Made by a program: the position numbers and the translations under genes. Below, piece after piece: positions 14,301 to 56,819 of a stretch of 64,000 nucleotides of DNA (within the stretch, counting starts at the first letter, position 1; each line of letters opens with the position of its first letter). Origin of the DNA: a virus; the IMG/VR virus record IMGVR_UViG_3300029787_000010, positions 40,981-104,980 of that record. One strand, given 5' to 3'. Under the pieces are notes generated by a model, which worked only from the letters and a program-made list of their open reading frames with translations, was not told where the DNA came from and searched no databases.

Positions 14301-17300
14301 CTTTCAATACAAGAGTAGGACTACTAAAAGAAGAAACGATGCCTTTCGCACGCTTGTTTTTGATGCGTGCCAAATGTGGGTTGATAGATGGCCCTGCTCT
14401 AAACTCAACCGCACTGACATACTGTTTGAGCCCATAGTCAATGTTTCCACCCTGTGTCATGGCGTTCGCTCGGTCAAAGTAGAACGAATCCCGACCCTCA
14501 TAACCTGCACTGGAGACTAAGGGGTTGTCAGCCACGCTTTGGTAATTGAGGTTTTCATTGTCAAGCGGTGGCATGACTTGCATGCCCACTTGAAACTCTC
14601 GTTTGAAGCCCGCTGAAAAAGCCCAGTTGTCATCAGCGGCAGCGTTCCCCGCCACTTCTAAATAGCCATTTGCAGTGTTGACCCCACTGTACATGACCCA
14701 CTCACCATTAGCAGTGTACGCTGTCCGTAATCGCAAAGCGCCGTTGATGTTTGCCACAGTGACAGGTATTGATGATGGAGCGGGAAAGACCTTGTGATTC
14801 GTGACATAAACTCGGCGATTAGCAGCATCATATTCAGCACTGACAGTTGTGCCTTCTCGGTGGGTTTTGTCTACGACTGAAACAGAATAAGCACTGTGTA
14901 AGGCAGGGTCTTCCGGCGATGTGCTCGTCGGTCGCCTCCCTACCGGATTCGGTGACCAAGAAGGAGCGGTATATGTAGCATCCAAATGCAACTTCATACT
15001 GTTGTCCGGTCCAACCAAAGCGTTGAAAAATTGGTCATGGAATAATGGAATCTCAACCATAGCACGAGTGCTGGCATACTGCGTGCCCAGTTGATAATCA
15101 TGCTGAACGCTGTTCAATGATTGGAACATACGGTCGTTAATTGTTGTACCATCGTGCACAACAGAACCCTCGTCAAACTTGTTATCCACATGTAAGTTAT
15201 TGCCTACTGATATGCCAACAGCCGTTTTCCAAGCCGCAAAAGAATCCAATTCTCTTCCGTCAAAGTCCACGAAAGTGCCCAAGCCTCGTTGACCTGTACT
15301 TGAAGTAAAGGTAAATGCAGTTCCTGTCTTTGATGAATATGTAGCGTAAGCAAAAGCATTATCGGTACCAGTATCAGTGGAGACTGGTTGCTTGAAGTAA
15401 ATACGCCCATTTTGAGGGAAGCAGTATGTGCCCCACGATGCCAAGTCAGTGGCGGCGTTGTTTAACGGAACAACAGTGATAGTGGTTGAGCCAAGTGCAC
15501 TCACTTTAGTTACGCAATCTCGTCGCAGCGACCAGCCAAGGCGTGAAACAGCACTGGGACTAAAGGTGGGCTTTGTGTTGACAGCCCCTTGACCGGGACC
15601 GCCCATGGTCATGGTGACGACAGGGGCACCGGGCATAATCTCCTTGACAACAAACGAGTCGGGCGCACCATCGCCTTTGACATTGACGGAGTTGGACAGT
15701 GCGTCAGCCACTAACCCATGTGCTCGCAAAGTAATGTCTTGTCCGTTCATGGACAACTGGAAATCCAATACTTTCCCACGGGACATGACATATTGTACAG
15801 CGACTTTATTGGGCGTTGTTGAGTCTTCCTCAAGCGTCAGCATTTTTGACAGTTGGTTGAAACGAGTGCGGTCATTGGGTTGAACAATAAGTCGTACACT
15901 TGCTCCTTGGCCACGATGACTGACAATGTCAAACACTTCATTGATAGGAGTGCCTTGATTGCTGTTGCTACGAGATTGGCGTATGGGTTGGTAGAACAGT
16001 TCTTCTCTGTGAACAATCGCCGCTGTGCTTCCCGAAGAAATGGTGATACTGGTCGCTGATAATGCTGAAATCTCACCCAAATTTTGACCATGTAAACTGT
16101 AAAGCGGAACACCAACAGCGAACACAGTAGTAGCATCAACGCCACTGACGGTAAAGTTAGTAGTAGATGCCGCATAGCCACCTGCGTTATTGACGAGGAC
16201 GCCTGTGCGGACACGACGACCATGAGCAAACTTTGCTTTGAAATTACCATTGGAGTCAACCTCCGAACCAAGGTCTTCTACTTCGGACGGGGTTACAATC
16301 AATTTATGGAAGTAGGACGGACGAGCGTTATCATCGTAGAACGCAGTGGGTATGATACTTGGTGCACTTTGTGGACTGTCCGATGAGTGAGACGGCAGGT
16401 AGTTTTTAGGTGATTTTGTTTCATCCAAAGCCCCTTCATGCAGCGTTCCTTCTGTGTCATCACCGATTAAGTCGCCGTCTTCAAAGTAAAAATCCGATGT
16501 TGCTCCAAACTCAATGACACCACCGGGAGCGTAGAGAACAGCAGTGCCGGCTGCAATGTCCGTATGCATGATGTCCAGCACTCGTGTGCCCGAAGTCACC
16601 TCTACGCTGGCCTTGGGCACGGTCTTGTTGACAATCAGTGCGCTGCCGTCAAGTGTTGTCCGTACAATAGCACCAGTCACTGCGGCTGTTTGGAAGGCTG
16701 AGGTGGGTGCCGAAGAAAAGGTAAGAGTGGCAGGTGAATGACTGATAGTCACAGTGATGGACGATGCTCCTGCAACTTCGGAGCCAATGAATACCTTGTC
16801 AGCCGTCGTTGTTCCTGTGTCCTTACCAAACGCTTTCGTGCTTTGTAAAGTGATGACATTGCTGCTGTAGTTTGCTGCCAAGCGACCTGTAGCAGCGTAC
16901 TGCAAGCCCGTGCCACCGAAGTCAATCGCTTCGTAGTGAACTTGTACAAAGGGTGCATAATCGTGAGTGGCCAGTGTTGGGAGTTTAAGGATGGCAATAC
17001 GAGGCTCCGACGAAGGTGTAAGGTGACGAGTATGCTCAGTTCCTGTCGGGTCCGTGTCCTGTAGACCTTTGAGTGCAAACGGCTCTGCATCAAATCCTGT
17101 GCCCCCAATAGCCAGTAGACCACGCTTTGTGTCATCAATGCCAGCCATTCCATTTTCTACGACCTGTGTAGGGCTTGAAGTAAAGGTAGCGTGGCTAACT
17201 GAGAAATCACCAACTTCGTCATGGAACGCTACTTCCGAGCCAGCCACGACGACATCTTTCAACTGACCATAGCGACCTGTAAAGGTGGCTTCCATAATTT

Positions 17301-33913: not shown

Positions 33914-33921
33914 TATTTAAT
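33914..33921 (-). promoter_or_regulatory. Putative archaeal TATA box for the protease-MCP unit
   Basis: ATTAAATA ends 24 nt before ATG 33889. Confidence 0.5.
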
Positions 33922-36900
33922 CAGTATGGATGACAGCCTTCTCGTCTGTAAGTTCCAAATCGCCTTGCAGTGCGTCGTTTTTAGGAAACTTTTTCTTGTC
34001 TTCGGCCGATTCCTTCTCATCACGCTCAATGTCACGGACATCGTAATCGGGCATGGTTTTAGCATCGTTGAGGTTCGTGGGACCACTGGGTGATTGGATT
34101 GGTGTAGCAAAGTCAAAGCCCAAACCTTTGGCTCCCCCGTGATAGTCGCCAACAGCACCAACGCTGCTCTTCTCCAACAGTCGCTCTAACAGCAACAGGC
34201 TCTTGCTAAGGATATGGCGTTTCTTGCGCTTCCATTCTGTGCCCTCTACTTTGTGAGGTTCGGTAAGTGGTTCGGCTGGTTCTGTAGATTCTTTGACCTC
34301 AGCCTTTTCTTCAATCTCCAACTTGCCCTTGAGAAGCACACCGACAACTGGGGACCAAAACGGTCGTTGATTTTCACTAAGGCGAAGCACATGCGGGTTG
34401 TCAGCCTCGGGCGTATGCACCGACCACTCGTCGCCCCGTACTGTCGCTTTGTAAACTACGGCACTGTCGCCGATTTTGATTTGAACATGCCTGCCCTTTC
34501 GGAACACTTCTACAGGGTGATGATACAACTCACCCTTCGCCAGCATGGACAGGGATTCGGAACTAACCAGCCCTTCACCCTCGGCCTCGCCTTCAATTTT
34601 GGGAGCGTGCACGGTGTAAACTTTCTGTCGCTCGGAAGCCTCAGTCTCTGTTACATTGGTGACATCTACACGCACCAAATCTCCAACATCATACTTGTCT
34701 TCACTTTGGAATGATGCACCCACATCCATGTAGTCATCCCCGTCATGCTTGACACGACGGTCACCTAAGTCTTCGCCGTGTGCGATAGGGCCGGTGCCAA
34801 GACGATACTGATACGGACCTTCGCCACGGCGGTCAAGCACCATAAGCACAACCTCCGAGCCGGGCTGGAGCATTACCCACTTTGGATGGCGTGGCTCACC
34901 CTTCATGTAAGCAGACTTAGCGTCCCGCATCAAAATGCGTGGACCTTCCAAGTTCTTGACAGCCGACTTCAAGCCAGCATCATCGGTGAGTTTCGTGTCG
35001 GATGCACTGGGCGTATGAACCATCTCCACGCTTTCAAGTGCTCCTCGCAAAACCTTGATGCGCTCTTGGATGGGCATGTCGTAGGTGTCGCTGCCGTCAA
35101 ACTCCAGTATGTCAAAAATGTGGATGACATCCTTTCCACGAATAGCGTCAATCACGAAGTCTTTGTCACTGACTTTCTTGAACGCAGCCTTTTCTTCATC
35201 CGACAGGTCTGCTTTGGATTCAATGTCGCCGTCCTTTTTGGTAACAAAGAAGCGGGGGCCTTCGGGAAAGTCGCTGACAATCCAGTCGCCCGTGAAGCCT
35301 TTCAAATGCTCCATGTCGTCCAATTCAAAAATGCGGTGCATGGCTTGCAGCGATGGCACACCGTCCGGCATATCCTTGCGGATAAAGTCCGGATTTGTGA
35401 GCGAAGCCAAGAGCGAAGGGCCATCCATCTTGTTACGCTGAGCACTGACTTGCTCATTATGCCTTCGGCCGATGGCGCTCTCCCGCATGCTACGAGGGCG
35501 CTCCTCGTTGGCTACTTCCGAACGGTGGTCCCCAAAGTAAGCACGATGCTCCGGAGCGAGCGCATGAGCGTTTTCCAAAGTAGGTGTGACCAACGATTCT
35601 TTTTGGGGCTCATCACGGCGATAAATCTGCATGTTGCCGTCTTCATCAATGTGACAGCCAAGTGACACATCGTGAATGTGACCCCAGTTCATGCGATAGG
35701 CAGGACTGTCGTACAACGACTGGACACCATCGCCGTCATGCCCGCCGGCTCGCCCGATGTGCTTGTACTTGAGTGCCTTTTCTCGCTTGATGTGCGTTGG
35801 TTTAACTGCCGGCTCGTGCCCTTCGGGCATGATAAGGAACGAATCAAGGATGTCCAATTTACGATGGGCCTTCGCATTATGCTTGTCTTTGACCTTTGTC
35901 CCCTTTTTGGGGCGTGGTTTTTCAGCAATAAAATCCCCATCAGCAAGAAGCAGTGCATTATCAGCCGTCTGTCCCTTATCGCTCAGCATCACATTTTTCA
36001 ATTGATTTAGAGCATCATTGATACGGGCTCTTCGTTGGTGGCGTGGAGCATTCGGGTGATTATCAGCAACTTTGTGGGGCTTGCCCCGAATGTTGTTTTC
36101 CAACATGATTTGATGCGGCATGGCACTACGGCTCATCGCAGCAAACTTTGGCTGAGCGTCACCGTTCTCATCAATGTAATACGACAGGTCATCCTTGACA
36201 TGGGCGTGAAGGTCGCCCATTCCCCGTAAGTTAAGTTCCTCTATGCCGCCAACATTTTGCAGAAACTGGGCCACCGGCATGACATGAAACGCTTGTTCAG
36301 CGGGGAACTTGTCACGCAATTTTTTGTGAACTGCTCTCAATTTAGCCACGGCTTCGTCCCGTGCAATGTTGGTCTTACCGGCTGCCTTGTTGCCTTCAAG
36401 GTCATACTCGGCTGCTTGCATGCCCAAGGCCTCAAGCCAGTCTTCGGCTTCATTCTCCAACGACAAAGGCTCCCCATGCAATTGTGGTGCAAGATGCTGC
36501 ACATTGAGTCCAATTTGAGCAAGGAGCAAACCCTTTCTACCAGTTTTGCTTTCCACTTCGTCAAAACTCGGATGCAGTGCCTGTAGTCCGTGCGCTTCGT
36601 GTGGGGCCTTGTTGGCAAAAGTGTTACCGTGTCGCATAGCCCAAGCCACGGCTGTGGCCGGACCCATGTCCGCTATGGGGTCAAAACCCTGCTCGTAGGC
36701 TGCTCGCATAACTTGCTGAGCCGCCTGCTCAATCACACTGTTATGGTTGGTCAAAATCTCGTGCATGGTGTCGTGTTCACGGTTTCGGGGTTCCTCTCCC
36801 GGTTTGACCTCTTCATAATGTTGGTCCAAGTCCTTCTCAAGCGCCCTCATTTCAGCGTAGAGTTCCTTCAAAGCCTGTGCCTTTTCGTCAATTTTTTCTT

Positions 36901-39604
36901 GGTGATGGGCACTGGTATCGCTGTTCCTTTCTTGCTCTTCAAGTAGCGCATCCAGTTCCTCTTGCACATCAAAATAATCATTGGTAATATGGTCCAACTC
37001 TTCTTCCTTTTGCATGGCCAGTCGGCGATGAGGAGTATCGTCCAATGAAGGCGCAGTTTCCATAACCGAATCTCGTTGGCGACGAAGGTCGTCCTGCAAT
37101 TCTTCCTGCTCTTGGATTTCAGTAGAAATGATGTTCATGGCATTTTCTTTCTGCTCGTCCGTCATGTCTGTTGTGGGAACACGAGCAACTTGCTCCCGCA
37201 AAAACTGCAACCTGTCTTGAGAAGTCGCAATCTGCTCGTCTATCTCTACAGCAGCAGGGAGCGTTTGCTCGCCTTCACGCAGCGGCGAAATGTCCTCCCT
37301 CCGGCGAAGAATTTGGTTTTCTTCACTGGGTCTACGCATAACACGAGCAAACTCAGCCGCATCACCCGTCGTGTGGTGAGCGTCGTCGGGTACTGCCGAG
37401 CCGTGATGGATGCCCGACTGAGGGTTCCCCGGAGGAGCAGCCAGTCCCAAATAGGTCGGAGCAGCATGGTGATGACGGGATTCCAAGAAATCAACATCGG
37501 TGTTGCCCAAGTGATAGTACGGGTTGCTGACAGTGACGAGTGCATTTTTCCTGTTCATGAAATGCTCGTCAAGGTGCGCACCGGCTGCTGCAAATCCTTC
37601 GCGTGTTCCGGCTGCGACCAAGTCATGAAACTCTTGAAATTGCTCATCGTGATAACTGCCCGACCACGAACTCTTGTTTCGTGCGGCATGACGGTTGCCT
37701 GCGAATGTTAAACCTCTGCTGACCCCTGCGGGATTCATAGCCGAAGCGAGGTCCGTTGGGTCACGAGCGATGTACTGCCCGTCAACACGCGATGCGTTGA
37801 CTTCGGGCGGAGCAAACGGAGCAGCAAGCCCTCCAGTGTGGACCACGGCTCCGCCCCGACCGGAAATGGCCAAATTCTTCGCAGCCTCCTGTGCTGGCGT
37901 TAGTTCGGGTATCTCAGACAATACACCTCGCTCACCCTCACCAACAACTTCGGGAGCCTCTACTGAGATGGGGCCTTGTGTGTGATGCGTTTTTCCGTCC
38001 GGCGTAGCAAACGCAGCGTGACGCATGTCTTCCACCGTGCGGTAAGTTTTACCGTGACCGCCTGTGCCATGAAGTGTCCAGTGAGTCGCCAATGTACGAG
38101 GGCGGCCTCCGGTGTAGGCTTCCGGATGCCCACCGTTGCCCTCGGTTCTCACGGAGTGGTTGACATGAAATTGCAGGGCGTTGCGAATATCGTTTTGTGC
38201 CTTGAATGAAGAACGCTCCTCGTCAACGGCTGTCAAGAAGTTTTCAATGTCCTGTGGCGTCCATGTGACAAGGCTACTCTTTGGCTCCCATCCGCTGTAA
38301 AACGGATGCTCACCAGCAGGGTAAAACTCGTACCCAGCCTCATTCTGCTTCGGACGAACACCCGCTGCAAGAAGCAATTCTTTACGACTGATAGCACGAG
38401 CATCCAGTTGTCCGTTTTTGTCGCCTTCAACCTGCCTTCGGGTCAACGGCTTCAATTTAATTTCACCGTCTGCATCAACCTTCAAAAAATCATAACCGTG
38501 TTTCGGCTTTTGAGCAGTTTTGTACTTGTCTCGCCTGCGCGTCTCAATATCGGTGTGATACTTATGGTGGGCTGCAATCCCTTGATAAAACGAATTTCCA
38601 AGCGACCCAGTCATTCGGCTGTAGAAGAAAGTGCGACTGTCTTTGTTTGAAGGCGTAGGGACGATAGGCGAGCGTATGGGTTCACCCAAGTTCATCGGTG
38701 CTCGTGTAAAGTGCTTATGATAGCCCGACTCTCGTTGTGCACGGCTGTACTTTGCTCGGGGCACTGAGTAATCCATATCAAGTTCCGGTATGCGCTGGTG
38801 GTCGGGTGATTCTGTCCCGTGTTCTTTCATATGTGCACGAGCAATCCGACGCTTGCCCCTTGTCATCCACTCCATGCCCTCAAAGTAGTCCTTCTCACCC
38901 AACTTCCACTCGGGGTCGTTTTGCCATTTACGCTCATAATCGTCAAGGTGCACTTTCCGGAAAAATTGTTTCAAAGCGGCTTCGTTTTGACCACCTGCAA
39001 TCATGCCTTCCATGGCAGTTTTTGGCGTAGCGCCACCCAAGTTGTCAAGTGGCGTGTCCATCCACTCAGCAAAGTTGTCTTCGTAACGAGCGTGATGAGT
39101 GTGCTCGCTGTCCAATCTACCCATAGCCATGTAGGAAAGAATCGGGTGTATTTGCCCGCCAATACCGGAACTCATGTGGTGCAGAACCCAAGACATTTCT
39201 GCATCAGCGTCCTCTTTGGACTGGCCGGATTCGTAAAACGACCGCACTTTGCGGATATGCAGTGGTGCAATGCCGATTTCGGGATGGGCTTCCAAAAGCG
39301 GGTTGAACTCGGGATGGACGGGGGAAGTGTCGGCGAAGTGCCCGGCTTCGGAATAGGTCTGCTGAGTGGTAGGTGCATTAACACCTTCGTGTGTCCACCG
39401 TCCGCTCATGTCGCCCAAGTCTTGGACGCCCGTCATTCGCTCAGCATGCGGGTGAGCAGGAGCCAGCGTTTCTTGGATGAAAGTCCCGCCCGTATCGGTA
39501 AGTGTAGGGCTGGTTTCGGGGACGAGGGTTTGAGTGTCAATTTGAGCACTCGTGGCTTGGTCAGCCTGTTCAAACTGGTCTTTGAGAAGAATGTCGTCCG
39601 ACAC
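33917..39604 (-). CDS. 1895-aa head-module protein with C-terminal degenerate ATP-dependent DNA-ligase-like (NTase + OB) domain
   Basis: Ligase motifs recognisable at about 34.6-35.3 kb ('IHIFDILEFDGSD...PIQERIKVL', 'SAYMKGEPRHPKWVML'), but motif I KxDG reads SDFPEG; lies between portal and protease. Confidence 0.75.
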   Translation of the reverse strand: MSDDILLKDQFEQADQATSAQIDTQTLVPETSPTLTDTGGTFIQETLAPAHPHAERMTGVQDLGDMSGRWTHEGVNAPTTQQTYSEAGHFADTSPVHPEFNPLLEAHPEIGIAPLHIRKVRSFYESGQSKEDADAEMSWVLHHMSSGIGGQIHPILSYMAMGRLDSEHTHHARYEDNFAEWMDTPLDNLGGATPKTAMEGMIAGGQNEAALKQFFRKVHLDDYERKWQNDPEWKLGEKDYFEGMEWMTRGKRRIARAHMKEHGTESPDHQRIPELDMDYSVPRAKYSRAQRESGYHKHFTRAPMNLGEPIRSPIVPTPSNKDSRTFFYSRMTGSLGNSFYQGIAAHHKYHTDIETRRRDKYKTAQKPKHGYDFLKVDADGEIKLKPLTRRQVEGDKNGQLDARAISRKELLLAAGVRPKQNEAGYEFYPAGEHPFYSGWEPKSSLVTWTPQDIENFLTAVDEERSSFKAQNDIRNALQFHVNHSVRTEGNGGHPEAYTGGRPRTLATHWTLHGTGGHGKTYRTVEDMRHAAFATPDGKTHHTQGPISVEAPEVVGEGERGVLSEIPELTPAQEAAKNLAISGRGGAVVHTGGLAAPFAPPEVNASRVDGQYIARDPTDLASAMNPAGVSRGLTFAGNRHAARNKSSWSGSYHDEQFQEFHDLVAAGTREGFAAAGAHLDEHFMNRKNALVTVSNPYYHLGNTDVDFLESRHHHAAPTYLGLAAPPGNPQSGIHHGSAVPDDAHHTTGDAAEFARVMRRPSEENQILRRREDISPLREGEQTLPAAVEIDEQIATSQDRLQFLREQVARVPTTDMTDEQKENAMNIISTEIQEQEELQDDLRRQRDSVMETAPSLDDTPHRRLAMQKEEELDHITNDYFDVQEELDALLEEQERNSDTSAHHQEKIDEKAQALKELYAEMRALEKDLDQHYEEVKPGEEPRNREHDTMHEILTNHNSVIEQAAQQVMRAAYEQGFDPIADMGPATAVAWAMRHGNTFANKAPHEAHGLQALHPSFDEVESKTGRKGLLLAQIGLNVQHLAPQLHGEPLSLENEAEDWLEALGMQAAEYDLEGNKAAGKTNIARDEAVAKLRAVHKKLRDKFPAEQAFHVMPVAQFLQNVGGIEELNLRGMGDLHAHVKDDLSYYIDENGDAQPKFAAMSRSAMPHQIMLENNIRGKPHKVADNHPNAPRHQRRARINDALNQLKNVMLSDKGQTADNALLLADGDFIAEKPRPKKGTKVKDKHNAKAHRKLDILDSFLIMPEGHEPAVKPTHIKREKALKYKHIGRAGGHDGDGVQSLYDSPAYRMNWGHIHDVSLGCHIDEDGNMQIYRRDEPQKESLVTPTLENAHALAPEHRAYFGDHRSEVANEERPRSMRESAIGRRHNEQVSAQRNKMDGPSLLASLTNPDFIRKDMPDGVPSLQAMHRIFELDDMEHLKGFTGDWIVSDFPEGPRFFVTKKDGDIESKADLSDEEKAAFKKVSDKDFVIDAIRGKDVIHIFDILEFDGSDTYDMPIQERIKVLRGALESVEMVHTPSASDTKLTDDAGLKSAVKNLEGPRILMRDAKSAYMKGEPRHPKWVMLQPGSEVVLMVLDRRGEGPYQYRLGTGPIAHGEDLGDRRVKHDGDDYMDVGASFQSEDKYDVGDLVRVDVTNVTETEASERQKVYTVHAPKIEGEAEGEGLVSSESLSMLAKGELYHHPVEVFRKGRHVQIKIGDSAVVYKATVRGDEWSVHTPEADNPHVLRLSENQRPFWSPVVGVLLKGKLEIEEKAEVKESTEPAEPLTEPHKVEGTEWKRKKRHILSKSLLLLERLLEKSSVGAVGDYHGGAKGLGFDFATPIQSPSGPTNLNDAKTMPDYDVRDIERDEKESAEDKKKFPKNDALQGDLELTDEKAVIHTD

Positions 39605-48625: not shown

Positions 48626-49674
48626 GCCGTCCTCCCGCTACCCCTGCTCACAAAGTGGTGACCGGAGGCACCGGCAGAACGGAACTCATCAGCCTCTTTG
48701 TTGTCAGTGCCCCCTTGAGGCTGAGTGGTTTCACCATCACGGTGCCCAGCCTCACCTTCTTTGGAGGTACCCTTGCCGGACGGCGGTGCTTTCTTGGCTG
48801 ACTCCTTGCGAGCGATGGCTCGCTTCAAGTCTCGCAAAATGTTGCGCAATTGGCTGAGGTGAAGGTAGCCCGAAGCCGACTTAACGAGCATCTGCATCTC
48901 TTGAAGTTCGGACTTCATGGTCATGGGCTTGAACTTTGTACGGCGTTCGGGGTTGTGCCCTTGATAGGGCAAGGAAATGTTACCGCGATTGGCCTGCATG
49001 GCTCGGGTACCGAGACTTTGGCGGTATTTGTCGGGAAACAAACGCAGAGGCTGCTTAGTATCAAGTCCAAGGTGGGACATCTCAACGGCTTTATCAGCAT
49101 TAACCATGCCACCCTGTTCAGTACGAGGACTGAGTGTACGGGACTGTCGCTTGGCACGCATGGATGTTGCTTGCTTTTGACGAGAGCGGCCACCGGGGGG
49201 AGCCTTGAACTGCTGGGTGGAGAAGTCGCCGTCTCGCTTGAGCAGTTGGAAAGCGATGTCCATCGGCTCACCGGCCATGACAGTTTGCTGACCGTATGGA
49301 CTAAGTGCCTGTGCACCAAAACTGATGCTGGCTTCGGGAGAACCAGTGCCCGGCGAGCCAGTGAGGGCACTGAGTTCATTCTGTTGAGCCATAGGCGTTT
49401 CTTCCATCATGTCCTCTTCCGGCTCGTCCATCGGCATAGGAGTGGGCATACCCATGTCGGGTTCTTCCGATTCAATGTTGAACTTGAGATGGGGCAGTTC
49501 ACGCGTCTTAACACGCTCCTCCTTCTCCTTCATTTTTTTGTCCTTCATTTGGTCCTCATGTTCAGGTGAACCCTTACCGTGCCGGTAGTCTTCGCCGTCC
49601 GAATAAAGGTGGTCCGAATCGGACCGGGGGGAATACATGCGGGTGTCAGTACCGGTACCCATGCTACTGGTCAT
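48622..49674 (-). CDS. Hypothetical disordered protein with internal tag (GEPMDIAFQLLK)
   Basis: 350 aa; acidic half before the motif, basic half after it. Confidence 0.7.
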   Translation of the reverse strand: MTSSMGTGTDTRMYSPRSDSDHLYSDGEDYRHGKGSPEHEDQMKDKKMKEKEERVKTRELPHLKFNIESEEPDMGMPTPMPMDEPEEDMMEETPMAQQNELSALTGSPGTGSPEASISFGAQALSPYGQQTVMAGEPMDIAFQLLKRDGDFSTQQFKAPPGGRSRQKQATSMRAKRQSRTLSPRTEQGGMVNADKAVEMSHLGLDTKQPLRLFPDKYRQSLGTRAMQANRGNISLPYQGHNPERRTKFKPMTMKSELQEMQMLVKSASGYLHLSQLRNILRDLKRAIARKESAKKAPPSGKGTSKEGEAGHRDGETTQPQGGTDNKEADEFRSAGASGHHFVSRGSGRTA

Positions 49675-50381
49675 GCGCTACCCTCCTGTTCTAACAAGCC
49701 GCTGATGTCAATTTCGTCGCCTTCCTGTGTGAGCAAGGCTTCTTTGACGCGCTTCCAAGTATCGGGACTCTCCTTTGCCATTTCAACTTTGAGGATGTTG
49801 ATGGTGTTTGCCACCATTTTCTCCTCGGGCTCAACCCACGCCTTTTGAAATGTGGTTAAGTCTTTGATGGACTCACGAATCTCTTTGCTTAACCTCACCA
49901 TATCCGAAACAGCCCCATCATCGTGGATGCTGACCTCGTCCATGTAGCGAGACAATTTCTCATTGAGGCGTTCAGTGTTGTGTCGCAAGATGTCAGCCTC
50001 TTGACCTACTTTGATGGACACGATGGCTGATGCACTTTGCTTGACGATGGGCTGGAAATGTTCTTTCATGTGCTTGTAAACAGTAGCCTCACTGCAATTC
50101 AACTCTTGAGCAATCTCTTCGGTGGTCATACCTTCGTCAAAGTAAGCGACTTCGTACATACTTCGGTGGTCGTCCGTGCATATCACGCAGCGGTAGTTGG
50201 AACCTTCCAAGTTTTCACCAGCATGATTCCGCATGTGGCGCTCAGCCGTGTTGGCTCGCCACCCTTTGTCCCGGTCCATGGTGCGCACATCAGCGGTACC
50301 TTGAGCAAGATTCATCTCAAGTTCGTCACGGTCGGGGTCTTGGCAGAAAGGGCAAGAACGCTTGCTTTGCCTAACTCCCAT
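49671..50381 (-). CDS. Terminase small subunit candidate (two CxxC..HxxxH Zn/HTH repeats plus coiled coil)
   Basis: CPFC...HMRNH and CVIC...EEIAQELNCSEATVYKHMKEH; helical oligomerisation-like C-terminus; first gene of the unit containing terL. Confidence 0.55.
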   Translation of the reverse strand: MGVRQSKRSCPFCQDPDRDELEMNLAQGTADVRTMDRDKGWRANTAERHMRNHAGENLEGSNYRCVICTDDHRSMYEVAYFDEGMTTEEIAQELNCSEATVYKHMKEHFQPIVKQSASAIVSIKVGQEADILRHNTERLNEKLSRYMDEVSIHDDGAVSDMVRLSKEIRESIKDLTTFQKAWVEPEEKMVANTINILKVEMAKESPDTWKRVKEALLTQEGDEIDISGLLEQEGSA

Positions 50382-50439: not shown

Positions 50440-50691
50440 ATGCCAAGACTGCCCAAAATGAATGTCAAAGTGGCCGGAATCCCTATGACAAAGGAAACGG
50501 CTGTTTCATTGTCAAAGGCTGCAAGAGATGTGGCTTTGCGACGAAAGGTAAGTCCGGAAGAGCGGGGTCGCAGACTCTCTATCTGCCAAGAATGCCCAAG
50601 TTGGACAGGCACACGATGCAAAGACTGTGGATGCATCATGCGAGCAAAAGCATCACTCAAATCGTCCACCTGTCCGCAAGACAAGTGGTGA
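50440..50691 (+). CDS. Small basic Cys-rich protein
   Basis: 'RLSICQEC...RCKDCGC...KA...CPQDKW' is a recurrent small viral Cys-rich pattern; fits the gap exactly; the only convincing internal plus-strand gene. Confidence 0.75.
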   Translation: MPRLPKMNVKVAGIPMTKETAVSLSKAARDVALRRKVSPEERGRRLSICQECPSWTGTRCKDCGCIMRAKASLKSSTCPQDKW

Positions 50692-50943
50692 CTATTGTTG
50701 TGAAATACGGGTGTAAATCCCCGTAGCGAGTAGAATCGCACCCATCATAGCGCCCATCATGTAAGCCATCATGTCCGATGAGAGTTTTCCCGAGCCGGTC
50801 AAGAGCACCAATGATAGCGTAACGATGATGGTCAGCACCTGTACCATCACCATGTCTACAATGACGCTCTTCTTTGGAGCAAAAATATCACGCGTTGACA
50901 TGGCAAAGCCATGGTAAATTCCGGGCATACCTCGGTCATTCAT
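50692..50943 (-). CDS. Small two-TM membrane protein (holin-like size)
   Basis: Two hydrophobic helices (VIVDMVMVQVLTIIVTLSLVLL; MMAYMMGAMMGAILLATGIY). Confidence 0.7.
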   Translation of the reverse strand: MNDRGMPGIYHGFAMSTRDIFAPKKSVIVDMVMVQVLTIIVTLSLVLLTGSGKLSSDMMAYMMGAMMGAILLATGIYTRISQQ

Positions 50944-50944
50944 T

Positions 50945-51592
50945 TCATCGTCCTCCCATCATACTGCGGGCAAAGGAACCAACGCCTCCGCCCACCTTTT
51001 GCATCATACCTTCGTCAGCCAAGGCTGCTTGGAGCGCACCGCCCATCATTGATTGTTGGGCCATCGCAAGTATTTGCTGTTGCTGCATCTCCATTTGCTG
51101 GATATTTTGCTGACTGGCACTTTGCATTTGATTGAATTGATTGGTGACATTCTCCGCACTCATGGTTTGAAGGTTGGAAGGGAGGGAAGTTACATCCATT
51201 TTCATGGTCCCATCGTCTTCATTGATAACAAAAGTAGCGTTTTTCATCACTTCCAGCACTGAAAAACTGACAAGGTCGTTCAACATTTGAACGAGTGTCG
51301 CCATTTGGGCTGACGCTACGAACCTGTCCATGGGTGCGACGGAGCGCATAAGTGCCAGTTGAATCTCAGCCTCGCTTGGAGGGGTAATAGGCTGCTGCAT
51401 CATACCCGGATTCATACCCATACCCTGCATCATACTGCCTCCAAAAGCACTTTGACCAAAGTTTTGCATGGTGCTTGGGGGCTGTTGATTGAAGCCAAAG
51501 GGCTGTTGAGGGGAATTGGTAGGTGCACCGAGGTTCAAGGCGCTATTTTGTTGCTGATTGTTGCCAAATAACATGTTTTCACCTACTTTCAC
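50945..51592 (-). CDS. Q/M/G-rich low-complexity protein
   Basis: 215 aa (probable ATG start at MLFGNN); amphipathic C-terminus. Confidence 0.7.
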   Translation of the reverse strand: MKVGENMLFGNNQQQNSALNLGAPTNSPQQPFGFNQQPPSTMQNFGQSAFGGSMMQGMGMNPGMMQQPITPPSEAEIQLALMRSVAPMDRFVASAQMATLVQMLNDLVSFSVLEVMKNATFVINEDDGTMKMDVTSLPSNLQTMSAENVTNQFNQMQSASQQNIQQMEMQQQQILAMAQQSMMGGALQAALADEGMMQKVGGGVGSFARSMMGGR

Positions 51593-52572
51593 ACTTGCCC
51601 TTGCACCGACTGAGGACCATTCTCCTCTTCAACCTGTTGGACAGGAGGGGCACTGGGCAGCGTAATACCCATTTTACCCACTGCATCAAGTATGCCGGGT
51701 TGAGTATTTTGGTCAATTTGACCCAATTCTTGCTGAAAAATCCTCAAATCAAAGACAACCATGGTCACATCGTTCATTTTTGACACCGGATTTTGGTAAT
51801 GAAGGATAGAAATACCGCTTGTTTGGCGTGAATCCTGCTCTAATTGCTTGAAAAAAGCCTCATATTTGGACAAAAATTGGGGTGTATTGTCCTTCTTTTT
51901 GACCATAGAGATGGGTACAGCGACCGTAGAAACGCCTTTTTTGACCATTTCTCGCATACCGGACTTGCTGGAAAGGCGAACTTTGTCGTTTTCATCCTCC
52001 CATTTGCACAACAAATGGTACAAATGGAGGTGTTCGGGGCAATAAGTACCCCGCATACTGCGCCCATCAGTCACATTTTCTTTGGCTACGAACGCTTGAA
52101 CCTCTCCAGACACTGGATTTTTCCAATAAAGGTCCCAAAGGCTCTCACCAGTGCCCTCATCGCATATTTTTGAGTACAAATTGTCGTATTTGATGAGTTC
52201 AACGCAGTCACAACCGTCCACAACGCATCGCTCATGCTGTTTATTGTACCTGTACTTCATTCCAAGCCACCGAAGTGGGTTAAAAATGCTCCTTTTGCTG
52301 GGTCGGAGCAACTTTCGGGCCTGCTTGATGTCTTTTTTGCGGGCTTTGCGTGAATCGGGGTGCCGACTGGGGTAAAAATTGACTTTTGGTACCTCAATGT
52401 TGCTTTTTACAGCCGCTTCACGCATTCCTTGCTGCGCACCCTGCATTTCAAGCAGTTGTTCGTGGGTAAGGTTGCCCTGTTGCGATAATGCGACCATTTG
52501 ATTGGCATCAAGTGCGTACAAATTGCCATTTCTTTGTTGTGGGACTTGCCCATACCGTCTTAATCCATTCAT
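51589..52572 (-). CDS. Hypothetical protein with Cys/His metal-binding motif
   Basis: 'CVVDGC...YCPEH'; basic amphipathic 'SIFNPLRWLG'; directly downstream of the GTPase. Confidence 0.7.
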   Translation of the reverse strand: MNGLRRYGQVPQQRNGNLYALDANQMVALSQQGNLTHEQLLEMQGAQQGMREAAVKSNIEVPKVNFYPSRHPDSRKARKKDIKQARKLLRPSKRSIFNPLRWLGMKYRYNKQHERCVVDGCDCVELIKYDNLYSKICDEGTGESLWDLYWKNPVSGEVQAFVAKENVTDGRSMRGTYCPEHLHLYHLLCKWEDENDKVRLSSKSGMREMVKKGVSTVAVPISMVKKKDNTPQFLSKYEAFFKQLEQDSRQTSGISILHYQNPVSKMNDVTMVVFDLRIFQQELGQIDQNTQPGILDAVGKMGITLPSAPPVQQVEEENGPQSVQGQV

Positions 52573-52583
52573 TTGTGTTCACC

Positions 52584-53300
52584 TCATGTTGAAAGCAAGT
52601 CTACCATCGTATTTTCTACATTCCAGCCTATTCGGGTGGCCATCATACCCCTTCGGGTAGGTATGCCGGCTTTTTGTAAACGAATAAGGTCTTCCCGAAA
52701 TGGGTCAAAAATACGATGTTCTCCAAGGCGCTGTTGTTGCCACAGAGTATTCGCTTGCTCATCCCACCACTTATCCGCCTTATTGGCGACTAAAAGAATG
52801 ACTTTCGGCGTGTATTTTTTGCCTTTTAGCCAACTTTTTAGATTTCTGTACCGATATTGGCGATAAATGAGAGCGTCTACCAAGAATTTGAAGCCACCAA
52901 CGGCATCAATGGTCGTGTCACCCCCCGCCGAAGCCCTGTCATCAAACATAAACACCACCGCTTCTACCCTTCTGTTGACCATATCATCAACCCAAAGGTT
53001 CCAAAAACGCTGTTCACCACCCAAATCAGCCGAATGAATGACACGGGTTTCACCCTTGTACTTGACTCGCTTACGACTGGGGCGAGGGAGAAGGAATTTT
53101 CCAAGCACCTTTGTGTGTGTAGTACGCTTGTCAAGTGCAATATCCTCCATTTCACCGGGTGTAGTCAAGTATTTGTCCAATGTCGTCTTACCAGCCATCG
53201 GTGGTCCGTAAATACCAACACGGCGGGGAATCCAATAGTGGTAAAGTTCTTTGGCAAAAATAACGCCACCTACCATTGCGGAGCCCGCTGCTGCACTCAT
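52584..53300 (-). CDS. Small Ras-superfamily GTPase, Arf/Sar1-like
   Basis: G1 GPPMAGKTT, G2 RTT, G3 DLGGEQRFWNLW, 'VEAVVFMFD', G4 LLVANKAD, G5-like MATRIGWNVE; hydrophobic N-terminal helix. Confidence 0.85.
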   Translation of the reverse strand: MSAAAGSAMVGGVIFAKELYHYWIPRRVGIYGPPMAGKTTLDKYLTTPGEMEDIALDKRTTHTKVLGKFLLPRPSRKRVKYKGETRVIHSADLGGEQRFWNLWVDDMVNRRVEAVVFMFDDRASAGGDTTIDAVGGFKFLVDALIYRQYRYRNLKSWLKGKKYTPKVILLVANKADKWWDEQANTLWQQQRLGEHRIFDPFREDLIRLQKAGIPTRRGMMATRIGWNVENTMVDLLST

Positions 53301-53542
53301 TCAAACCAGCCCATGACTTCATTGGCCATCCAATTGACAGTGTGTTCCCAAAAACTCCAATTGTTGTGGTACTCAAACGCACTAATTGCCAACGCACTGA
53401 TGAATGAAAAAATAATCGTCTTAACCCATCCCCATGTGCGCTCATAGGCAGTGTCCAAAGTGTTGGCCATGTGAATAGCACGGAGCGTTGACTCCGTCGC
53501 ATCATCACTTGGCGTTTTGAACAGCCAGCCCACAGACCTCAC
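53297..53542 (-). CDS. Small membrane protein (one TM plus Trp-rich amphipathic tail)
   Basis: 'WGWVKTIIFSFISALAISAF'; overlaps both neighbours by 4 nt. Confidence 0.7.
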   Translation of the reverse strand: MRSVGWLFKTPSDDATESTLRAIHMANTLDTAYERTWGWVKTIIFSFISALAISAFEYHNNWSFWEHTVNWMANEVMGWFE

Positions 53543-54075
53543 TCCTTCTTCTTGAATTTACCATCAGCGCCACGGTTGGCGCTGGTGTCTTTGTCGTCAA
53601 ACGATACGCCCAAATCAAGAGTTTTATCACCTTTCTCGGGATTAAATGAACCTGTGTCAAGCGAGATGGGGTCGGAGAGGTTCATCGGTGGTATTTTGCC
53701 GGGATTGTTTTCCATCCAACGAAGTTCTTGCTCAAGTTGTGCCTCTTGCATTCGCAACTCCATGTCCTGTCGTCGCCGTTCAAAGGTCATTTCCATAGAG
53801 CGGTATCGGTTCCTGCGCTCTCGTTCCATTTCGGATTGCCGAGCCTTGTCATCCATGCCCTGTTGAAAGAACATTTTGAAGAAGTAGTAGGCAATGCCTT
53901 GAACAAAGAAAGCGCCCATCGCATAGGTGAAAGCGTTCAACATTGTACTTTCTAAATCAATCCAAATACCGGCGTTAAAAACACCTATGGCAAGTCCGAC
54001 ATTTAACGACTGCATGAGGATAAGCCCCATCAGCCGGATTTCACTTTGGTCAACGCTTTGGCTACCGCTTGTCAT
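53539..54075 (-). CDS. Two-TM membrane protein with cytoplasmic coiled coil
   Basis: Two hydrophobic segments followed by an E/R/Q/M heptad region. Confidence 0.75.
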   Translation of the reverse strand: MTSGSQSVDQSEIRLMGLILMQSLNVGLAIGVFNAGIWIDLESTMLNAFTYAMGAFFVQGIAYYFFKMFFQQGMDDKARQSEMERERRNRYRSMEMTFERRRQDMELRMQEAQLEQELRWMENNPGKIPPMNLSDPISLDTGSFNPEKGDKTLDLGVSFDDKDTSANRGADGKFKKKE

Positions 54076-54084
54076 GCAATCCTC

Positions 54085-54120
54085 TCATATAACCCCAAAA
54101 TGCACAAGGACATAAAACCT
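54085..54120 (-). promoter_or_regulatory. Putative promoter of the GTPase operon
   Basis: AGGTTTTATG and TTATAT within a 92-bp gap; GAGAGG before ATG 54075. Confidence 0.4.
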
Positions 54121-55313: not shown

Positions 55314-55548
55314 GCAACCAGTTACCCCCATGTTTCATTTTTTCATAAGCCTGTCGCAACATCATGTACTGCTCTTGAGCATCCACAAGGTCGGCGAGCA
55401 ACACATCGTTGCCGTCGCAAGCCTCCTCCAACATGTCAATGATGTCAGCGTAGTGGTCAAGCAAGTCCTGCATGATTTGCAGATGGTCTTCCAGCGTAAG
55501 CACGAACTGAAAGCCCCAACTGTCAAAGGGATATTCGGTCATCACCAC
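55297..55548 (-). CDS. Small acidic helical protein
   Basis: 83 aa; fills the gap between flanking genes; AGGTGAG upstream. Confidence 0.55.
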   Translation of the reverse strand: MVMTEYPFDSWGFQFVLTLEDHLQIMQDLLDHYADIIDMLEEACDGNDVLLADLVDAQEQYMMLRQAYEKMKHGGNWLHAESN

Positions 55549-56819
55549 TCACCTTTGAGGAGGCGGAACGAAAGGTCCATCGGTTCGCCGGTTGTGAAAT
55601 ATCCGCCAAAAGGTACGCCTTGAAAAGTGGGTTCTTCTTGGAGTTGCCCTGCGTGGTCCATTATCCGAATATAATTGGCTTGGGGGCGGTCGCGGGGGCC
55701 TTCTGCAAGAAGTTCGTCCATGAAATTTTCGTACTGTGGCATGACTGTGACTTTAGGGACACTTGGAATTGTAGGTAAGCCGGGCTGAATAACATCTTCA
55801 TGAAACAATTGGTTGAAACTACTCGGATGAATCATGAAGCCCGCCTCGGAACCAATGTCATTTGTGTTGAATACTTGCTGCGGACTGGTACCGTAAAACG
55901 GGAGCGGGCCTTTAGTCCAACCACGCCCGTAGTCAAAAGATGCGTTCGGTTCACCGGGATGATGTGTGGCTGCGTCAATGTTTTCCTCCAATTTGCGCCG
56001 AGCCATTTCTTGATTTTGCGCTGCCCTTGTCGCACGCAGTTTTTCACTTGCACGCTCAACTGCTTCCGGATTAGCAGCGAAGTTTTTGGTCGGTTGTCCA
56101 CGGGCAGGACGACTTTGCTCAAGACGACGGAGTTGTCCTCGTGAAAGCGTTTGTCCGGGCGCTCGCTTGCGGTTAAATTGACGCATCAAGTCTTCTTCAC
56201 GCTGCTCAAACTCATCCATGTCGTCGGGCGAACGCTGGTCCAAGTCAAACTTGAGTAGAAGCCAAGCGATGTCCATAGGGTCGCCCTTGAGGGTACCTCG
56301 CTCTTTGAAGTGGCGGGCCCTGTTGGTGTGAGGGTCTTCGGCGACGAGGGTGTGGTCTTTCGTGTGGCTCATGTCCGGACCTCCTTTACCCTCAATGCCC
56401 CTATGTCGGCGTTCACGCTTGAGTTCTTCCCGATACTTGACACGCTCGGGCGTGGACTCGTACTCGGTGTCGTACTCCAACTTGTGGCGCTTGGCCTCGG
56501 GGCTGACAGGTCGCTTGAGCACCAGTGATTTGACAATCGTTGGCTTCCCGCCGACACCTTGCTTCTTGCTACGCTTCCGCTTGGTTGCCGCACGCTTCTG
56601 CCCTTCGCTCATGGAGCCACTGGTCTTCGGCGTCTTGCTGGACACCTTGACTGACGGGCGGCACTTGGGGTAGCCTTTGCTTCCTTTCTTCGCTTTGGAA
56701 CGACCACATGGCGGGTGCTTACCGTCCTTGTCCTTGCGAGACACATCCACCCACTTCTCCTTGAACCAGCGGTTCAAGTTCTTGCGGACGACGACTTTGC
56801 TCATTTCTTCCCCGCCCAA
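55542..56819 (-). CDS. Modular tagged polyprotein (basic Cys module, HNH-like module, variable module)
   Basis: Modules separated by VVVRK, LVLK, DPMDIAWLLLK and EPMDLSFRLLK; probable start at MSKVVVRK (ATG 56804). Confidence 0.75.
   Translation of the reverse strand: MGGEEMSKVVVRKNLNRWFKEKWVDVSRKDKDGKHPPCGRSKAKKGSKGYPKCRPSVKVSSKTPKTSGSMSEGQKRAATKRKRSKKQGVGGKPTIVKSLVLKRPVSPEAKRHKLEYDTEYESTPERVKYREELKRERRHRGIEGKGGPDMSHTKDHTLVAEDPHTNRARHFKERGTLKGDPMDIAWLLLKFDLDQRSPDDMDEFEQREEDLMRQFNRKRAPGQTLSRGQLRRLEQSRPARGQPTKNFAANPEAVERASEKLRATRAAQNQEMARRKLEENIDAATHHPGEPNASFDYGRGWTKGPLPFYGTSPQQVFNTNDIGSEAGFMIHPSSFNQLFHEDVIQPGLPTIPSVPKVTVMPQYENFMDELLAEGPRDRPQANYIRIMDHAGQLQEEPTFQGVPFGGYFTTGEPMDLSFRLLKGEW

Follow-up and report, generated by a model that had tools for sequence, protein, structure and literature searches.

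A conserved magrovirus operon encoding a divergent Arf-like small GTPase and predicted membrane proteins, a candidate module for virion egress

Results

Organization of the operon

The DNA analysed here, hereafter the window, comprises 64 kb at the right-hand end of an IMG/VR virus record (IMGVR_UViG_3300029787_000010) that has 104,980 bp, is rated 98% complete and that we assign to the magroviruses. The minus strand carries nearly all of its genes, among them six consecutive open reading frames (ORFs) at positions 50692-54075, here called A to F from the upstream end, which form a compact operon around a putative small guanosine triphosphatase (GTPase). An earlier inspection of the DNA letters (the sequence-only reading) had placed six ORFs with their predicted features at these coordinates, and all of them are present. 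With hydrophobic segments called by Kyte-Doolittle windows, gene A (53539-54075, minus strand, as are all six) encodes a 178-aa protein with two hydrophobic helices and a charged coiled-coil-like tail, and gene B (53297-53542) a predicted single-pass membrane protein of 81 aa. Gene C (52584-53300) encodes the GTPase, 238 aa long and in our reading Arf-like and divergent. It is followed by gene D (51589-52572), whose 327-aa product has a putative zinc site in an orphan fold, gene E (50945-51592), whose product, 215 aa when counted from a GTG start, is rich in Gln, Met and Gly, and gene F (50692-50943), encoding 83 aa with two hydrophobic helices.

The genes are coupled as had been described. 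A and B overlap in GTGA, B and C in ATGA, the spacers are 11 nt between C and D, 14 nt between D and E and 1 nt between E and F, and boxes resembling GGTGA or GAGG stand ahead of the gene starts. We regard A to F as real genes and not chance ORFs because tblastn recovers them, in the same order, in 68-71 of 71 related viral loci.

The operon also has the upstream gap claimed for it. The 92 nt before A form one of only six gaps of at least 45 nt on the minus strand of the 64 kb. Within this gap a TATA-like box, TTTTAT (54112..54117, minus strand), lies 37-42 nt upstream of the start of A and is preceded by a purine-rich AGAAGG. Sites of the form TTTAT[GT] occur only 20 times on the minus strand of the window, and most of 29 distinct upstream regions from relatives have a cTTTATg/t box 35-60 nt before A, so that the box is a candidate archaeal promoter of the operon. 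A Shine-Dalgarno-like GAGAGG (54081..54086, minus strand) is found 6-11 nt before the ATG of A, a position at which relatives have GAGAGGGAT or GTGAGG boxes. At the other end the operon meets a convergent gene outside the module, on the plus strand at 50440..50691, which encodes a Cys-rich DUF6171 protein of 83 aa (PF19668, E 2e-8) and whose stop abuts the stop of F with zero spacer. This is the sole plus-strand gene in the region, its opposite-strand placement is kept in 60 of the 71 loci, and it separates the operon from helix-turn-helix (HTH) and terminase genes; it may act as a transcriptional boundary. The upstream gap with its conserved TATA-like box and the convergent gene at the end together suggest that A to F are a transcription unit of their own.

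Sequence and motifs of the GTPase

The three GTPase motifs quoted in the sequence-only reading, GPPMAGKTT, DLGGEQRFWNLW and NKAD, were all located in the product of C. The P-loop spans G32-T40, the switch I Thr is Thr60, DLGG occupies residues 92-95 and NKAD residues 173-176, and a G5-like motif, MAT(R)IGW, follows at 220-226; the protein is basic, with a net charge of +13. In an alignment of 30 GTPase members, 21-66% identical to the window protein, G32, G37, K38, T60, D92, G95, D120, N173 and K174 are invariant (30/30), and D176 of the G4 NKxD motif is kept in at least 90%. Since the G-motif residues are invariant across such diverse members, all the nucleotide-binding motifs appear to be under selection. 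Thr60 is probably the Mg-binding Thr, given its position and its invariance. The protein thus shows the G1, G2/G3 and G4 motifs and, in its predicted structure, the G-domain fold of the small GTPases of the Ras superfamily (TRAFAC). In switch II, DLGGEQRFWNLW, the Trp stands 11 residues past the Asp, an Arf-like spacing, and Glu takes the place of Gln; the residue after DxGG, Glu in the window protein, is Gln, Glu, Asp or His among its relatives.

C had also been credited with a hydrophobic N-terminal helix. A helix is predicted at residues 2-23 in the AlphaFold model and it is hydrophobic, but it is not a full-length transmembrane segment (16 uncharged residues, mean Kyte-Doolittle score 1.1-1.6). 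An N-terminal extension of some 30 residues, with a hydrophobic stretch in it, is common to all 30 members; the uncharged run has a median of 14.5 residues and measures 26 in one member. The length of the predicted helix is closer to that of the membrane-inserting helices of Arf and Sar1 than to that of a normal transmembrane helix. In the window protein the helix has a low hydrophobic moment (0.3-0.6) and Ser at residue 2. In Arf the corresponding helix is amphipathic and myristoylated at Gly2, and an interswitch toggle ties its release to the nucleotide state.

Sequence searches placed the protein at the edge of known families. Against Pfam, C matched only MMR_HSR1, at E 0.098, with no Arf match at E <= 0.1, and the NCBIfam model TIGR00231 (small_GTP) reached E 5e-4, under its cut-off. 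When the 30 members were polled against Pfam, Arf was the most-matched family (weakly, by 18 of 30, best E 9e-5, with scores near or below the 22.3-bit cut-off of PF00025), and SRPRB (PF09439) was matched weakly by 7 of 30. Some members bear the label 'GTPase SAR1 family protein' from the JGI pipeline. A PDB sequence search with the single GTPase gave no significant match; with the family profile the best match was GerdArfR1, at a non-significant E 0.16.

Fold and family placement of the GTPase

The AlphaFold model of C (predicted local distance difference test, pLDDT, 76) has a small-GTPase fold. Foldseek returned at least 500 matches in the PDB at E <= 0.001, nearly all of those listed being small GTPases or G-alpha subunits, and structure matches by VIA had Z scores of 10-13.7 over 150-175 residues. 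In an unbiased structure search the first match was SRbeta, the membrane-anchored subunit of the eukaryotic signal recognition particle (SRP) receptor (2fh5_B, Z 13.5, root-mean-square deviation (rmsd) 3.2 over 163 residues; a second SRbeta entry, 7obq_v, scored 12.9), together with an Asgard Rag-like GTPase (13.2), Arf6 and Arl2 (13.0), Sar1 (12.4) and G-alpha-i (12.2). In a second comparison 22 of the first 23 rows were Arf-family proteins, led by Arl8B (Z 13.7, rmsd 2.9 over 161 residues), Arl2 (13.3) and Arf1/Arf6 (13.2), with the Asgard proteins GerdArfR1 and HodArfR1 at 12.9; the exception was the Asgard Rag-like GTPase (13.1), and Rab5 scored at most 12.0. The margin of Arf over Rab is only 1-2 Z units, and this structural leaning agrees with the motifs (DxGG with Trp, MAT..G as G5) and with the Pfam vote.

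The description of C as Arf/Sar1-like therefore stands in part: its nearest solved folds are Arf/Arl, SRbeta and Sar1, but membership of the Arf family fails at the Pfam threshold. Motifs and model together identify C as a very divergent Arf-like small GTPase and not as a member of the Arf family. With the Arf family (Arf1, Arf6, Arl1/2/3/6/8 and Sar1, and the Asgard ArfR proteins, including GerdArfR1, PDB 8OUM/8OUN) it shares the predicted G-domain fold, a switch II of the form DxGG(Q/H/E) with a Trp 11 residues downstream of the Asp, NKxD, a G5 of the form (S/M)A(T/K)xG, and, as predicted, an N-terminal helix ahead of the first strand. The two differ in that identity is only 16-19%, that the viral protein has no Gly2 for myristoylation, and that its catalytic Gln is replaced by Glu, at a position variable in relatives. 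Relative to Arf, about 17 residues are presumably inserted between G1 and G3, and about 20 basic or aromatic residues before NKAD. It is encoded only by viruses, and its partners are orphan proteins, whereas those of Arf are Sec7, ArfGAP and coat proteins. In the viral structure library BFVD only the Ras/Rab/Ran proteins of giant eukaryotic viruses match it (Foldseek E 1e-5 or weaker). These are likewise virus-encoded small GTPases, but they are close copies of host proteins, whereas the GTPase of these archaeal viruses forms an isolated family with membrane partners of its own.

The partner proteins

The membrane features predicted for A, B and F were borne out. In A, hydrophobic segments at residues 15-41 and 48-70 precede the highly charged coiled-coil-like tail, and the charged helix is conserved. 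B has one hydrophobic segment (38-56). Ahead of it stands an N-terminal motif, FKTPSDDA..TLRA.H.ANT.D..YER, that is strongly conserved and looks cytoplasmic, and the C-terminal tail behind it is rich in Trp; the start of B may lie two or three codons downstream. That the B motif and the charged helix of A contact the GTPase is a guess. F, holin-sized at 83 aa, has hydrophobic helices at 31-49 and 58-76, and positive charges at both ends suggest an N-in/C-in topology.

D had been described as a Cys/His protein. Its Cys and His residues are indeed conserved, but we recast them as a zinc-type site of the form C-x2/4-C ... C-x2-H in an orphan fold. Across three clades the pattern consists of C116, C119 or C121, and then G-T-Y-C178-x-x-H181, and it is accompanied by a basic stretch, EVPKVNFYPS.H....KARK.DIKQA..LL.P.KR; D may bind zinc. 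The whole model of D (pLDDT 70) matched no known fold (best Foldseek E 1.5; best VIA Z 4.9, to the N-terminal helices only).

E probably starts at an ATG at 51574 (MLFGNN...), as its relatives do, which gives 209 aa. It comprises a low-complexity N-terminus, an invariant PPS at 71-73, a middle part predicted to be mixed and a Gln/Met-rich helical tail that ends in G-x-R, and in all clades it consists of 10-15% Gln and 5-13% Met. An NCBIfam match of E to a translocon protein of the type III secretion system was rejected as compositional.

Family profiles of D and E found nothing significant among PDB sequences, and the ESM Atlas held no usable match for either. Against Pfam at E <= 0.1, A, B, D, E and F gave chance-level matches only, and none of A to F matched PHROGs. 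A complex prediction of D and E with the GTPase gave ipSAE 0.00 in both runs, which were made without controls and are evidence neither way.

Identity of the virus

The genome combines, by Pfam, a structural block with large terminase, portal, prohead protease, SU10-type major capsid protein and tail tube protein, a family B DNA polymerase (PolB) and a Cpn60/TCP1 chaperonin. The structural block includes a giant ORF of 5487 aa (2329-18792, minus strand) and an ORF of 1895 aa (33917-39604, minus strand) with a weak ATP-dependent DNA ligase domain near residues 1485-1576. Relatives were sampled from Tara and other marine sites. Magroviruses are marine tailed viruses with linear double-stranded DNA of about 65-100 kb, a PolB of their own, a chaperonin and a structural module of the HK97 type in which a ligase is embedded, and their hosts are Marine Group II archaea (Philosof et al. 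2017, PMC5434244). The ligase domain within the 1895-aa ORF fits the embedded ligase of magrovirus groups A and B. On the grounds of genome size, HK97-type structural genes, PolB, chaperonin, embedded ligase and marine relatives, all the features that define the group are present in sequence and the genome can be classed as a magrovirus (Magrovirales); the host assignment is taken from PMC5434244.

Conservation and distribution of the operon

The linkage of the GTPase to the membrane genes, which is our strongest finding and which the sequence-only reading had made the point on which its claim would stand or fall, held in every relative examined, including clades with about 33-42% GTPase identity. 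The close set comprises 71 IMG/VR loci whose GTPase is 58-96% identical to that of the window. By tblastn, A to F occur in 68-71 of these at median identities of 42-68%, in the order A-B-C-D-E-F-HTH; where a member went undetected, in most cases the locus stops at that point or the small protein scores under the threshold. A and F were each found in 68 loci, B in 70 and E in all 71.

Beyond this set the same block was recovered in four further clades. In the P0125 clade (GTPase about 40% identical) the order is A-B-C-D-E-F-x-HTH, with all members detected by profile. A P0233-type locus has C-D-E-F, its contig beginning inside C, and the P0130 clade has A-B-C-D-E, located after a chaperonin gene. 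The P0150 clade, which is large and whose GTPase is about 33% identical, has a 2-transmembrane (TM) protein without detectable sequence similarity to A, a Trp-rich 1-TM protein of about 74 aa in the position of B, the GTPase, a D homologue that keeps CxxC...GTYCxxH, and a Gln/Met-rich protein. The P0130 and P0125 clades have homologues of A (E 1e-8 to 1e-17), two further clades have homologues of B (E 3e-5 to 2e-4), the P0125 and P0233 clades have homologues of F (E 3e-12 to 4e-8), and all other clades have a homologue of E, or a protein of the same composition, at the same position. Scans with the GTPase members P0198 and P0127 yielded no loci. The block stands before the HTH and terminase genes in the window, in the interval between capsid and tail-tube genes in P0150 and after the chaperonin gene in P0130; it therefore moves as a unit within the late region and is not a recent host island.

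In five near-complete relatives the identities of the GTPase, 59-77%, follow those of the large terminase, 54-78%; for the capsid protein they are 74-90%. The G+C content of the cassette is 0.473 and that of the whole window 0.514; because the cassette is deeply conserved, amino-acid composition (Met, Gln, Asn, Lys) is a more likely cause than recent transfer.

GenBank phage records contained neither a DNA nor a protein match. A phmmer search of 1.84 billion representative sequences returned 78 hits, mostly fragments of the viral GTPase family, with no cellular homologue, and the eight full-length distant hits that we inspected were all members of this family. Recent origin from a host island, likewise named as something that would overturn the sequence-only reading, found no support here: a survey of one genome for each of 185,579 prokaryote species gave only three matches, on contigs of 8-16 kb in metagenome-assembled genomes (NZMJ01000140.1, JABLTJ010000060.1 and NZQM01000026.1; L157, L158 and L159). 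These were binned to Maricaulis, Parvibaculum and an Asgard genome, carry a GTPase 58-64% identical to that of the window, and look like misbinned magrovirus.

One subclade (L028, 6710-7317; L032, 6721-7774; also L033) has two or three extra genes between C and D. One or two of the inserted genes encode proteins that begin with a tag of the AWxxLK type (...DLAWSLLK, ...EYAWALLK, ...DAAWTILK), and the other encodes a small protein that, judged by eye, is AbrB/SpoVT-like. The cassette can thus accommodate inserted genes, tagged ones included, within its operon.

Neighbouring genes and other membrane proteins

Beyond the DUF6171 gene follows an HTH protein of 236 aa (49671-50381, minus strand) with a sigma-70 region 4/LuxR-type domain (E 4e-6). 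It has weak PHROG matches to small terminase subunits, lies downstream of the cassette in both the window clade and the P0125 clade, and may be the small terminase. The AWxxLK-type tag is, as had been stated, absent from A to F; it is present in two neighbouring proteins. A 425-aa protein on the other side of the operon (55542-56819, minus strand) has an N-terminal DUF5872 domain (E 1e-9) and two copies of the tag motif, AWLLLK at residue 185 and SFRLLK at residue 417.

No protein of the window other than A, B and F is a credible TM protein. The cassette thus accounts for all the membrane genes visible in these 64 kb but not for all those of the genome, as the left arm has further small TM ORFs. 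There (G000:C1:12066-14948 and 1375-2871; L175, L176) a run of small minus-strand ORFs of 63-123 aa with one or two hydrophobic segments each is found, and also an ORF of 498 aa with about seven hydrophobic segments. None of the left-arm TM ORFs has a Pfam match, and some are possibly not real genes; as a group they are alternative candidates for lysis or other action on the membrane.

Discussion

The reading that we favour, at somewhat less than an even chance, is that the operon encodes a GTP-switched device that acts at the host membrane late in infection and breaches or remodels it for virion release. That it is the missing egress machine of tailed archaeal viruses, in which an Arf-like GTPase times and drives membrane rupture or budding, is a more doubtful proposition, which we put forward tentatively. 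Membrane binding, partner contacts, late timing and an egress role of the cassette are all inferred from sequence. The operon would be a self-contained unit, probably expressed late; its genes are embedded among morphogenesis genes. The short hydrophobic helix at the N-terminus of the GTPase would hold it at, or insert it in, the host cytoplasmic membrane. A and B, invariably encoded ahead of it, would probably help to hold it there, as anchors or exchange factors, while the zinc-type D and the Gln/Met-rich E, which always follow it, would serve as regulators or effectors. Roles for D and E as GTPase-activating protein, guanine nucleotide exchange factor or effector are guesses, since neither matches a known fold or family. 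The nucleotide state of the GTPase would then set when the complex deforms or breaches the membrane, F being a possible pore-forming helper, and finished virions would leave a cell that has no murein.

Four considerations favour egress. The first is that archaea of the host type lack murein. The second is that the cassette behaves like a mobile lysis cassette. Like the lysis cassettes of phages it is compact and mobile and has small membrane proteins in or adjoining the late genes, and in lambda, too, the lysis cassette is found directly ahead of the terminase region. In size and in its predicted 2-TM, N-in/C-in layout F corresponds to class II holins and pinholins. The resemblance has its bounds: unlike a holin-endolysin cassette, this one has no endolysin or wall-degrading enzyme domain within it or in its neighbours (Pfam, PHROGs), F is not universal, conservation is far above what is usual for holins, and we know of no GTPase in a lysis cassette. 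The third is that the egress genes of tailed archaeal viruses have yet to be found, their egress machinery being completely uncharacterised according to a 2024 review (PMC10791045). The fourth is the example of ArvA, a small GTPase of archaea that has a zinc protein as partner and is able to deform the cell membrane (PMC10927574).

Several observations weigh against this reading. F, the most holin-like part, is kept in only three of five clades and is missing from P0150, the largest distant clade. D as a whole model has no known fold, and neither D nor E has a known family. The N-terminal helix of the GTPase is short and weakly amphipathic and could pack on a protein partner instead, and GTP hydrolysis may be slow or partner-dependent, as the residue after DxGG is Glu here and variable among relatives. 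Lysis genes usually evolve fast, and the GTPase is about as conserved as the terminase, which is unusually high for a lysis function. The position of the block in P0150, with head genes on one side and tail genes on the other, is one where structural or assembly genes would more typically be found. Finally, the cluster of TM ORFs in the left arm could be the real lysis genes.

Some of the same observations would suit a membrane-anchored platform for assembly or packaging, in which the GTPase, with its membrane partners, would fix capsid assembly, genome packaging or a virus factory to the host membrane on its inner side and the switch would control recruitment, not rupture. Recruitment of effectors to membranes is typical of Arf-type GTPases, morphogenesis genes always surround or adjoin the block (window, P0150), and conservation at the level of the terminase is what one would expect of core assembly factors. 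However, no protein of the cassette resembles a structural or packaging protein in Pfam or PHROGs, the cassette lacks the tag common to neighbouring putative virion-targeted proteins, and tailed viruses are not known to us to need a membrane for head or tail assembly. We consider such a platform rather unlikely, with perhaps one chance in several.

Less probable still is that the GTPase aids the targeting or insertion of membrane proteins in the manner of SRbeta, or serves some other takeover of the host membrane such as superinfection exclusion. SRbeta has an N-terminal hydrophobic anchor, to which the predicted helix of the viral protein may correspond, and falls in the same DxxG(H/Q) group, it is among the best structure matches (Z 13.5 and 12.9), and SRPRB is weakly matched by 7 of the 30 members. 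Its score is nevertheless within 1 Z unit of those of Arf and Arl, in most members the viral helix does not reach the length of a TM segment, and no partner resembling SRalpha, the longin-like SRX or SRP was detected by Pfam and PDB profile searches; to our knowledge archaea have no SRbeta. Met-rich domains bind hydrophobic helices in SRP54 and Sgt2, and the Gln/Met-rich composition of E in all clades (10-15% Gln, 5-13% Met) could be seen in this light. The N-terminal helices of D, compared with the M domain of Ffh/SRP54, gave a VIA Z of 4.3-4.7, which is non-significant and at noise level. A whole conserved operon would also seem a costly means of inserting a few small proteins.

The ArvA-ArvB-ArvC (OapABC) operon of Haloferax volcanii, in which the small GTPase ArvA drives vesicle formation with ArvB and the zinc-ribbon protein ArvC (PMC10927574), suggests another role: the cassette might form vesicles or buds for non-lytic release, as decoys or for host manipulation, and not bring about lysis. 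It offers an archaeal precedent for control of vesicle output from one operon by a GTPase with an N-terminal helix and a zinc-ribbon protein (PMC10927574), and viruses, a review speculates, could exploit such GTPases (PMC10791045). The gene content runs parallel, a GTPase and then a zinc-type protein, and the likeness, drawn for ArvA from its description, extends to the archaeal setting, an Arf/Sar-like GTPase with a membrane-seeking N-terminal helix and a further partner. The membrane-deforming role of ArvABC has been shown by experiment. Neighbours of the viral GTPase, D and E among them, have no Pfam match to DUF2073 (ArvB) or DUF2072 (ArvC), D as modelled has another, orphan fold, and two or three integral membrane proteins are present in addition in the viral operon. 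ArvA is a widespread cellular protein, whereas the viral family was found only in viruses, without a cellular GTPase among the 78 phmmer hits, and naked tailed virions are generally released by lysis (PMC10791045). We hold vesicle formation to be improbable, to about the same degree as a role in protein targeting.

A role in the virion or in genome delivery, with A, B and F ejected as membrane channels and the GTPase packaged or associated with assembly, has little to commend it. Small hydrophobic proteins are ejection proteins in some phages, and in P0150 the block stands between capsid and tail-tube genes; against this, its position differs between clades, the cassette has no PHROG matches and lacks the tag of the neighbouring proteins, and we know of no virion protein that is an Arf-like GTPase. 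The idea that these genes are chance neighbours or a recent host-derived island, to which the lower G+C of the cassette (0.473 against 0.514) might point, can be set aside as very improbable in view of a gene order conserved in 71 loci and four further clades down to about 33% GTPase identity, the overlapping start and stop codons, and a cellular record of three misbinned-looking contigs among 185,579 species and no homologue in the representative library.

A device that switches the host membrane for virion release thus remains the reading we favour. The GTPase was not mentioned in the searchable literature on magroviruses, Poseidoniales viruses or archaeal tailed viruses; what is new is the GTPase family, its partners and its viral setting, the protein class and GTPase-driven membrane work being already known. 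Marine Group II archaea with their magroviruses rank among the commonest pairs of microbe and virus in the surface ocean, and most magrovirus genes are unannotated. The class of protein to which the cassette GTPase appears to belong bends membranes in eukaryotes (Arf, Sar1) and in haloarchaea (ArvA). With a conservation near that of the terminase and an occurrence in at least five virus clades, the cassette is therefore a concrete, cloneable candidate for egress. The family also adds a virus-only branch to the Arf-like GTPases and bears on the occurrence of such switches outside eukaryotes and Asgard archaea. If the cassette is indeed an egress machine, it would be a GTP-switched release system without counterpart in bacteriophages, and would mean that an Arf-type membrane machine evolved, or was preserved, in viruses of non-Asgard archaea.

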